Source: Girardia tigrina
Taxonomy: Eukaryota
Length of the DNA stretch: 64,000 nt
Direction: 5' to 3'
Assembly: GCA_001938485.1 (NCBI GenBank)
Contig: MQRK01191981.1
Location: 28,412 to 92,411, forward strand
The first letter of the stretch is position 1. Every line of letters begins with the position of its first letter. The translations under genes and the position numbers were made by a program. This document shows positions 59,115 through 59,820 of this stretch, piece after piece. The notes under the pieces were generated by a model, which saw only the letters and a program-made list of their open reading frames with translations, had not been told where the DNA came from and did no database searches.

Positions 59115-59820
59115 TGATTTGCATTCCTTGTGCTTCAATAAATTCTGCTGATTTCAAAAATGCTAAGTTACAATCTTTATAATTTACCGAATACAATAAA
59201 ACTCTTCTCCAGTCTGACAACTGGTTTACTTATAATTACAAAAAGGATGTGATTGTAGTTTTCCGGTTGCACCATCAAATGTTCTCAATTCTGTCTGATA
59301 TTCCTCTGAAACCATTATTTTTTGTATTATTTTTCATCCTAGTTTTACCAATTCATCAACACAATCACCGGTGGCTTCCATTGTACCTTTTCTAATAACT
59401 GATTCTCTCATTATAGATCCTTCCTTTACTGCTAATTTTAATGTTTCGTCAATTTTTAATTCTTTAGTTTAAAATGCAGCTTCACAATTTTCAGGTAAGA
59501 TCTGTACAGGTCTCGGAATCGCATCAATTTTTATAATAGATGTGTGGCTCCAATTTCCACAATGAAATACATAAGTTGCTCTTTTCACAATGCATTCTCT
59601 CACTTTAGCTCTTCTAAATCCAGATTATTGATATAAATGATACAAAACATTCTGATTCTCTTTAATATGTTGTGGATAGGAATCCGTACATTCAACCACA
59701 TCCATCAAAGAATATATTTTTCCGACCTCCGTCTGTGAGCAATCATATGCTACAAACGCTTGAGTTCGACTTGTACCCAAAATAATAAATAAAAATAAAG
59801 TGAACCACCACAATTTAGAA
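59115..59820 (-). pseudogene. Env-like glycoprotein N-terminal half (chuvirus-like), with several stops, truncated by a deletion into pol
   Basis: Signal LWWFTLFLFIILGTSRTQA, then FVAYDCS..YSLMDVVEC..HLYQ*..AKVRECIVK...FHCGNWSHTS..ILPENCEAAF..GDC..FCNYK*TSCQT..DC. The cysteine spacing and the AYDC and CG..SH motifs fit chuviral-type glycoproteins as I recall them. Confidence 0.7.

Follow-up and report, generated by a model that had tools for sequence, protein, structure and literature searches.

A Ty3/Gypsy element of Girardia tigrina with a single reading frame predicted to yield a gB-type fusogen before pol and a three-FN3 surface protein after integrase

The genome of Girardia tigrina contains an abundant Ty3/Gypsy element whose single frame is predicted to encode a polyprotein that is inserted twice into the ER and yields a gB-type fusogen and a surface protein built from three FN3 domains. 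We assign this reading a probability of roughly 0.8. The placement of env before pol repeats published work, and the FN3 tail of the polyprotein is the addition. The copy described here lies in a window of 64,000 nucleotides, the whole stretch of DNA that was analysed (contig MQRK01191981.1, positions 28,412 to 92,411). It is dead, internally deleted and unable to function. Its parts are as follows.

60644..60922, minus strand: 5' break (about 60922) and first ubiquitin-like domain (sister homology ends at 60922; Pfam ubiquitin, E=5.7e-06)
59817..60410, minus strand: second ubiquitin-like domain, weak (Pfam ubiquitin, E=0.091), and acidic Asn-rich linker (tblastn frames)
59757..59816, minus strand: signal-peptide-like segment 1, with a predicted signal-peptidase site before FVAYDC (sequence)
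59050..59756, minus strand: N-terminal part, about 235 codons, of the predicted gB-type class III ENV ectodomain (PF24664, sister identity, sister fold)
59050..59052, no strand: junction of an internal deletion of about 2.1 kb (comparison with sister loci)
56200..59052, minus strand: end of the PR-RT spacer, RT, RNase H and integrase with zinc finger, core and C-terminal part (Pfam)
56126..56188, minus strand: signal-peptide-like segment 2, in frame with integrase (ORF 55121-57187)
55265..56125, minus strand: three predicted FN3-like beta-sandwich domains (AlphaFold, Foldseek, VIA, Atlas)
54963..55264, minus strand: Ser/Thr/Asn-rich stalk, predicted membrane anchor 2 (about 55124-55068) and short tail (hydropathy)
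53167..54714, minus strand: separate accessory ORF with a DEDD-type 3'-5' exonuclease domain (Pfam RNase_T on a sister copy)
51836..51849, minus strand: polypurine tract (sequence directly 5' of the LTR)
50862..51835, minus strand: 3' LTR of 974 bp with TG...CA ends (sequence)

At about 59816-59757 on the minus strand, a basic n-region is followed by 13 hydrophobic residues and a T-x-A end. FVAYDC, the conserved start of the ENV ectodomain, begins directly after this segment at 59756 (minus strand). The signal peptide proposed by the sequence-only reading is present as a signal-peptide-like segment. The same reading had proposed a chuvirus-like ectodomain of about 230 codons, readable through stops, and this is confirmed apart from its end. 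Translated with X in place of stops, 59115-59822 (minus strand) matches the Pfam family PF24664, Monjiviricetes_fusion, with E=1.5e-18 and 66.6 bits against a cut-off of 27, and four in-frame stops are found at 59627, 59471, 59336 and 59228. However, homology in the frame originally noted ends at about 59200, a further 51 codons lie in another frame (59202-59050), and the last 30 or so codons of the noted interval 59115..59820 are out of frame. Besides the four stops and the frame change, the env of the window copy (59050..59756, minus strand) has a short gap, and it covers about 235 of the approximately 540 ectodomain codons. Also on the minus strand, the glycoprotein does lie upstream of pol as proposed, with RT, RNase H and integrase after it. 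The Pfam matches of pol are RVT_1, RT_RNaseH, Integrase_H2C2 and rve. The second ubiquitin-like domain and the linker are in frame with env, and a frameshift near 60290-60380 splits the first domain off. Frameshifts in pol are located near 58670-58750 and 57055, while the RT-RNase H stretch is itself open. A frameshift near 55127 severs the region of anchor 2.

The env of the window copy stops at 59050 because about 2.1 kb are missing. With them went the remainder of env with its membrane anchor and its tail, then the protease and the greater part of the PR-RT spacer. In all 13 sister loci that hold both sides of the 59050 junction, 1,956-4,199 bp lie between the two sides, and eight of these lengths fall within 1,956-2,145 bp; one length, 3,009 bp, is due to a duplicated RT stretch in its contig. 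Contigs from public runs likewise depart from the window sequence at 59050/59052. Four such runs gave short contigs of relatives along the element; their RNA status is guessed for two and unclear for a third, and the fourth may contain DNA, so that these contigs do not count towards expression. The DNA of the window copy is 93-94% identical to its five nearest sister copies.

Sister homology ends at 60922, and the gag capsid and zinc knuckles are therefore absent from the window copy. Sister copies carry a capsid-like region and CCHC knuckles upstream of the ubiquitin-like (Ubl) region. No 5' LTR was found within the window or the next 10 kb. Contig C254327 has the LTR repeat upstream of gag, and C245635 and C252468 have it downstream of the exonuclease ORF. 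Two separate, unrelated repeat families (60925-61642 and 61864-62832) cap the 5' break of the element, and the latter gives weak phosphoribosyltransferase-like and RING-like Pfam hints with E above 0.05. Between the exonuclease ORF and the polypurine tract, 51860-53049 represents about 1.2 kb that are absent from three sister loci. A fragment of a cytidylyltransferase-like gene (Pfam E=0.004) and two N gaps lie within this stretch, which is either an insertion or a scaffolding artefact.

In the genome of 1.43 Gb, 3,275 env candidates are found, and 150 scored candidates gave 151 matches with 66-92% identity. From the matched env loci we selected 40 further sister loci for long flanks and mapped their domains with natural single-copy queries. 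Gag capsid or CCHC is found upstream of env in 22 of the 40, and a family pol domain (at least 50% identity) downstream in 20, while family pol within 3 kb upstream of env occurs in none. The linkage of env to this pol in other copies is thereby borne out. Loci that lack gag or family pol are truncated, gapped or interrupted copies. The FN3 part follows integrase in six of the eight family integrases in these loci. Measured from the ENV start, typical offsets are -2,650 for capsid, -1,870 for CCHC, -1,100 for Ubl, +2,230 for PR, +3,200 for RT, +4,850 for IN and +5,800 for the further (FN3) domain. The domain order is gag(CA, CCHC)-Ubl-Ubl-signal 1-ENV-anchor 1-PR-spacer-RT-RNase H-IN-signal 2-FN3x3-anchor 2, followed by the separate exonuclease ORF, the polypurine tract and the LTR. 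From the domain offsets, the element measures roughly 14-15 kb, with an LTR of 974 bp.

For the reading frame, we used 13 junction probes on 79 sources, some of them overlapping, and dropped matches that did not span the junction. Each probed junction is crossed in one frame; stops are scattered, and none is common to more than three matches. Stop-free crossings, as a share of the spanning matches, amount to 30/38 for linker to signal 1, 18/23 for anchor to tail, 17/21 for tail to PR, 16/16 for spacer to RT, 16/19 for RNase H to integrase, 16/19 for integrase to signal 2 and 12/12 for FN3 to anchor 2. Env, PR and RT lie in a single ORF in contig C243767. Since every probed junction is crossed in one frame, the family most likely encodes a single frame of about 3,300 codons; this length derives from overlapping junction counts, because every copy examined from the genome is broken somewhere.

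The PR-RT-RNase H-integrase order and the TG...CA LTR with polypurine tract are traits of Ty3/Gypsy elements, and the Pfam matches RT_RNaseH and Integrase_H2C2 fit an assignment to this group. The stretch between PR and RT is named spacer because it contains no Pfam match for dUTPase. Two sisters share a 16-base motif after the 5' LTR, where a tRNA primer-binding site would lie. In L037 and L031, about 8 A/T bases follow the LTR end before TGG, and any primer-binding site would therefore be offset. PMC13524379 gives no primer-binding site for its six Schmidtea elements.

The exonuclease ORF gives Pfam RNase_T with E=3e-07 on a sister copy, has 2,844 candidates in the genome and occupies the same place in sister loci. 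In one sister it comprises 531 codons, with an N-terminal part of about 200 residues without Pfam match. It is present in diverged subfamilies down to about 45% identity. Contig C107343 has an exonuclease-like ORF upstream of gag, possibly from a neighbouring copy. Near another sister copy (contig C174573), we find an ORF at L073:945-1556, which by eye we take to resemble a C-type lectin domain.

The complete ENV was obtained from sister copy L006, which holds a 539-residue ectodomain with 14 cysteines and then a hydrophobic anchor; together with the gag domains upstream of env in the sister loci, this copy supplies the anchor and the gag link that the sequence-only reading had proposed to recover. 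The model of this ectodomain, based on an alignment of 105 rows, reaches a pLDDT of 89.5. Against the PDB, all matches listed are gB proteins of herpesviruses, the best with E=1.5e-13 and a TM of about 0.4. Against viral models, the first match is the glycoprotein G of the chuvirus Tacheng tick virus 4, with E=4e-39 and 22% identity. The ENV ectodomain is thus predicted to be of class III and to resemble gB, with a signal-like segment before it and an anchor after it, and the earlier description as chuvirus-like agrees with both the Pfam match and this fold. Searches of PDB sequences with the ENV profile and with the FN3 profile matched neither domain. ENV is under purifying selection, with dN/dS between subfamilies of 0.05-0.08, next to 0.07-0.10 for RT/IN.

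Against 1.84 billion representatives, the ENV profile gives 2,145 matches at E up to 0.001. Top-tier matches are long proteins, mostly with protease, RT or integrase in the same chain, whereas the second tier consists of stand-alone glycoproteins of about 650 residues, two of which were confirmed as named chuvirus proteins among ten proteins looked up. Identity to ENV is 30-42% for most top-tier retroelement envs, 17-25% for the stand-alone tier and 22-25% for chuviral G. Conserved cysteines are observed across 135 aligned ENV sequences. In a FastTree analysis of 122 of these 135 rows (13 were left out for coverage below 70%), ENV falls in a group of 19 with retroelement envs at a support (SH) of 1.0. 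An IQ-TREE analysis of 32 rows, run in quick mode and unrooted, with rows and labels chosen with the FastTree result in view, again places ENV with retroelement envs (SH-aLRT 99). On these comparisons, env appears as an old, inherited part of the lineage that shares ancestry with chuviral G, and not as a fresh capture, because its nearest relatives are retroelement envs and not chuviruses. The direction of capture cannot be read from the trees because they are unrooted.

A signal-like segment precedes ENV in 27 of the 34 sister copies that could be scored among the 40 loci, as judged by a simple h-region and -1/-3 rule plus hydropathy. The 16 distant relatives returned by a hydrophobicity filter also have a hydrophobic segment before the ENV start. 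Because an internal signal-like segment is conserved in sisters and distant relatives, release of ENV from the polyprotein by signal peptidase is likely. In 20 of the 34 scored copies, an in-frame Met is found shortly before signal 1.

Beyond integrase, the frame runs on into signal-like segment 2 and about 280 residues of beta structure, after which come a stalk, a hydrophobic anchor and a short tail. The junction from integrase to signal 2 is crossed in one frame by 19 matches, and signal 2 is conserved across subfamilies. Signal 2 is only moderately hydrophobic; in the window copy, every 19-residue span stays below 1.4. The FN3 part has 1,630 candidates in the genome and is found in subfamilies down to 35% identity. 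AlphaFold gives three FN3-like domains with a pLDDT of 74.6 overall and mostly 80-90 over the domains. The best Foldseek match of the model is fibronectin FN10-12 (E=7.9e-11), VIA gives Z of 8-10 to FN3 arrays, and Atlas gives fn3 at 0.95. Similar arrays are those of fibronectin, Tie2, CD45 and cytokine receptors. The part is predicted to consist of three seven-strand beta-sandwich FN3 domains of about 90 residues each, an assignment made by predicted fold only, because a Pfam fn3 match and a PDB sequence match are both absent. The FN3 part is under purifying selection, with dN/dS of 0.14-0.40 in the 26 non-saturated pairs out of 29, and its rate of evolution is 3-5 times that of ENV.

Five of the distant polyproteins examined extend as far as integrase. 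In four of them (P0012, P0014, P0022 and L143) integrase is also followed by a signal-like segment and an ectodomain; P0025 shows no hydrophobic cassette there within its available sequence. L143, with an ENV 42% identical to that of the window family, has an ORF of 3,426 residues that extends without a stop from upstream of ENV to beyond integrase. This ORF (L143:2-10282) is open at its 5' end and begins with ubiquitin-like and Bcl-2-like domains, signal, ENV and anchor. Two protease-like domains, a signal-FN3-like-anchor cassette and a third protease-like domain follow, and its 3' part holds RT, RNase H, integrase and a second signal-ectodomain-anchor cassette. L143 combines the Bcl-2 trait of Burro elements with traits of the window family and would cross the membrane six times. 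With hhalign, the family FN3 profile matches the tails of P0012, P0014 and P0022 no better than 30 shuffles of each. With hmmsearch, the post-integrase tails score 0.7 bits for L143 (8 of 60 shuffles as high), -4.6 for P0014 (49 of 60) and 0.6 for P0012 (5 of 60). The middle cassette of L143, with 8.7 bits, is the sole one above all 60 shuffles. Atlas on the P0014 tail gives fn3 at 0.91-0.92 with low recognition, a weak lead. The distant tails may have diverged very far from a common origin, or they may stem from separate captures. In a metagenome scan with P0014, none of 20 candidates was confirmed. P0014 itself is a 2,627-residue ENV-PR-RT-IN polyprotein. Its NCBI entry (HBK71150.1) is a hypothetical protein from a genome bin assigned to Flavobacteriaceae, and most likely it is animal retroelement DNA within that bin. 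P0008, P0010, P0012, P0016 and P0021 each contain two or three aspartic-protease-like domains, and P0012 seemingly has a further one after integrase.

The position of env and its type are known from the literature. In the planarian Burro, env lies in frame between gag and pol, which was presented as the first such case (PMC6431247, 2019), and Chary and Hayashi report the GAG-ENV-POL order together with an ENV of gB type from Platyhelminthes, Nematoda and Bryozoa (eLife 2026, PMC13524379). As position and glycoprotein type are already published, the claim of an unusual env position fails as novelty. The premise that Gypsy envs are usually F-type is likewise outdated, both types being called equally abundant (PMC13524379), and a chuvirus-like glycoprotein of mosquito BEL/Pao elements is also reported beside gypsy pol (PMC13524379). 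For arthropods, a 2023 study reports no clear Gypsy capture of a chuviral glycoprotein (PMC10084718). Smed_errantivirus_1 and _2 resemble the window family in being Ty3/Gypsy elements with env before pol, a gB-type class III fold and high copy number (PMC13524379). For Smed_errantivirus_1, 83 of 147 columns in domain I-II, about 56% by eye count, are identical to the ENV of the window (PMC13524379). By eye, the ENV cysteines of the window family align with the rows of planarian members that have the C1a cysteine-bridge configuration. In the accessible main text of PMC13524379, the words 'polyprotein', 'in-frame', 'fibronectin', 'accessory' and 'exonuclease' do not occur, and 'fibronectin' and 'FN3' are absent from the accessible parts of seven of its supplements.

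With Burro/GYPSM1, the window family shares a single, very large ORF in which env sits in frame after gag and before pol, mononegavirus fusion protein matches, a ubiquitin-like (Ubi2/SUMO-like) domain before env, a CCHC Gag and accessory ORFs (PMC6431247). With about 14-15 kb and 3,300 codons, it is about half the size of Burro, which exceeds 30 kb and encodes 4,873-5,140 residues (PMC6431247). No Pfam match for Bcl-2, BIR, MATH or ankyrin is found in the gag-env ORF of C107343 or the env-RT ORF of C243767, some N gaps included. A Burro-like protein, P0007 (capsid, CCHC, Bcl-2, ENV, PR, ankyrin), has an ENV 39% identical to ours. With chuviral G, ENV has the PF24664 family and the class III fold in common, but chuviral G lies on the other side of the tree and is a stand-alone gene of about 650 residues, whereas ENV is embedded in a polyprotein. 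Anakin (Dezordi et al. 2020, PMC7642597; 2023, PMC10084718) is a BEL/Pao element with chuviral G, in contrast to the Gypsy family described here. The Anakin-type glycoprotein lies 3' of integrase, while the env of the window family lies 5' of pol; a BEL-type protein, P0061, carries its glycoprotein after DUF5641, and the window element has no Pfam match for DUF5641 or a Pao-type domain. The rotifer LTR retrotransposons Juno and Vesta offer a parallel for an exonuclease ORF downstream of pol (Rodriguez et al. 2017, PMC5408684). Their extra ORFs are ORF3, encoding a DEDDy exonuclease or a small transmembrane protein, and fibronectin/FN3 is unmentioned in the accessible text (PMC5408684). An FN3 membrane protein is also unmentioned in the part of the Burro review that was available (Arkhipova and Yushenova 2019, PMC6431247). 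In the literature covered, mainly open-access text without figures or Repbase notes, no description of a post-integrase FN3 protein was found, and the protein is apparently undescribed.

By the known rules of membrane insertion, translocation starts at an internal signal that follows a cytosolic domain and stops at the next hydrophobic anchor. For the window family, Gag would be synthesized in the cytosol and stay attached to the ER through signal 1, and ENV would enter the ER lumen. Anchor 1 would bring the chain back to the cytosol, where Pol would hang on the ENV tail until the protease of the element frees it. Signal 2 would then direct the FN3 domains into the lumen, and anchor 2 would hold them there. 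Signal peptidase would release the gB-type fusogen and, after integrase, the FN3 protein. Because all parts come from one chain, Gag, ENV, Pol and the FN3 protein would reach a single membrane in a one-to-one ratio, and particles could bud from it.

Other explanations differ widely in their probability. A stray viral fossil, or the env of another element, beside an unrelated pol would explain why the window env abuts the pre-RT spacer with no protease between, and half of the 40 sister loci have no family pol within 7 kb. Those loci are broken copies in a fragmented assembly, though, and the 13 loci with both junction sides contain the missing part between them; the conserved order, the junction content and the Env-PR-RT ORF of C243767 rule out chance adjacency for practical purposes. 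A recent, independent capture of a chuvirus glycoprotein by a Gypsy family, as the sequence-only reading had it, is very improbable. Chuviral G is the best viral structure match, the Pfam family is shared and named chuvirus glycoproteins are among the sequence matches, but ENV is closer to the retroelement envs, above all the Schmidtea element, than to chuviral G, and both trees separate the two groups.

The remaining two alternatives concern how the proteins are made and what they do. Insect errantiviruses produce env from a spliced or subgenomic message; the same could hold here, with the in-frame fusion mainly keeping the gag-pol frame open. The Met before the hydrophobic segment would suit an own env message; it is, however, absent in 14 of the 34 copies, Pol is translatable only through env as the junctions are in frame, any ribosome that makes Gag-Pol has to go through signal 1 and anchor 1, and the same layout is kept in relatives at 30-42% identity. 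We consider this explanation unlikely. A much stronger contender, although still short of even odds, is that the FN3 protein acts on the host cell, either as a receptor decoy, or by modulating immunity or adhesion, or by blocking superinfection. Its fold resembles host FN3 arrays, it evolves faster than ENV, such elements bear other host-modulating parts (Bcl-2-like, ubiquitin-like, exonuclease), and P0025 appears to do without the cassette. Against this, the protein would be made one-to-one with ENV at the same membrane, and signal-ectodomain(-anchor) cassettes recur after integrase in P0012, P0014, P0022 and L143. From fold, topology and linkage, our guess is that the FN3 protein most probably assists the fusogen at the surface, as its partner in attachment or adhesion, and we slightly prefer this role on the particle over that of a host-cell decoy. 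Herpes gB, too, needs partner proteins for entry.

Beyond this family, GAG-ENV-POL Gypsy elements might be organized in a flavivirus-like manner, an analogy that we offer tentatively and consider rather doubtful. Their polyprotein would cross the ER 4-6 times and deliver a fusogen with one or two FN3 glycoproteins as a two-part entry machine, and Pol would be packaged via the envelope tail and not via a Gag-Pol fusion. Should one membrane-threaded chain indeed give an LTR element its capsid, fusogen, enzymes and FN3 surface protein, this would be an unfamiliar answer to the question how Pol reaches the particle, and equally to the question how a gB-type fusogen finds its target cell. Surveys restricted to gag, pol and env would overlook post-integrase cassettes. 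The FN3 protein represents a concrete gene for knockdown or staining in planarians, where these elements number thousands.
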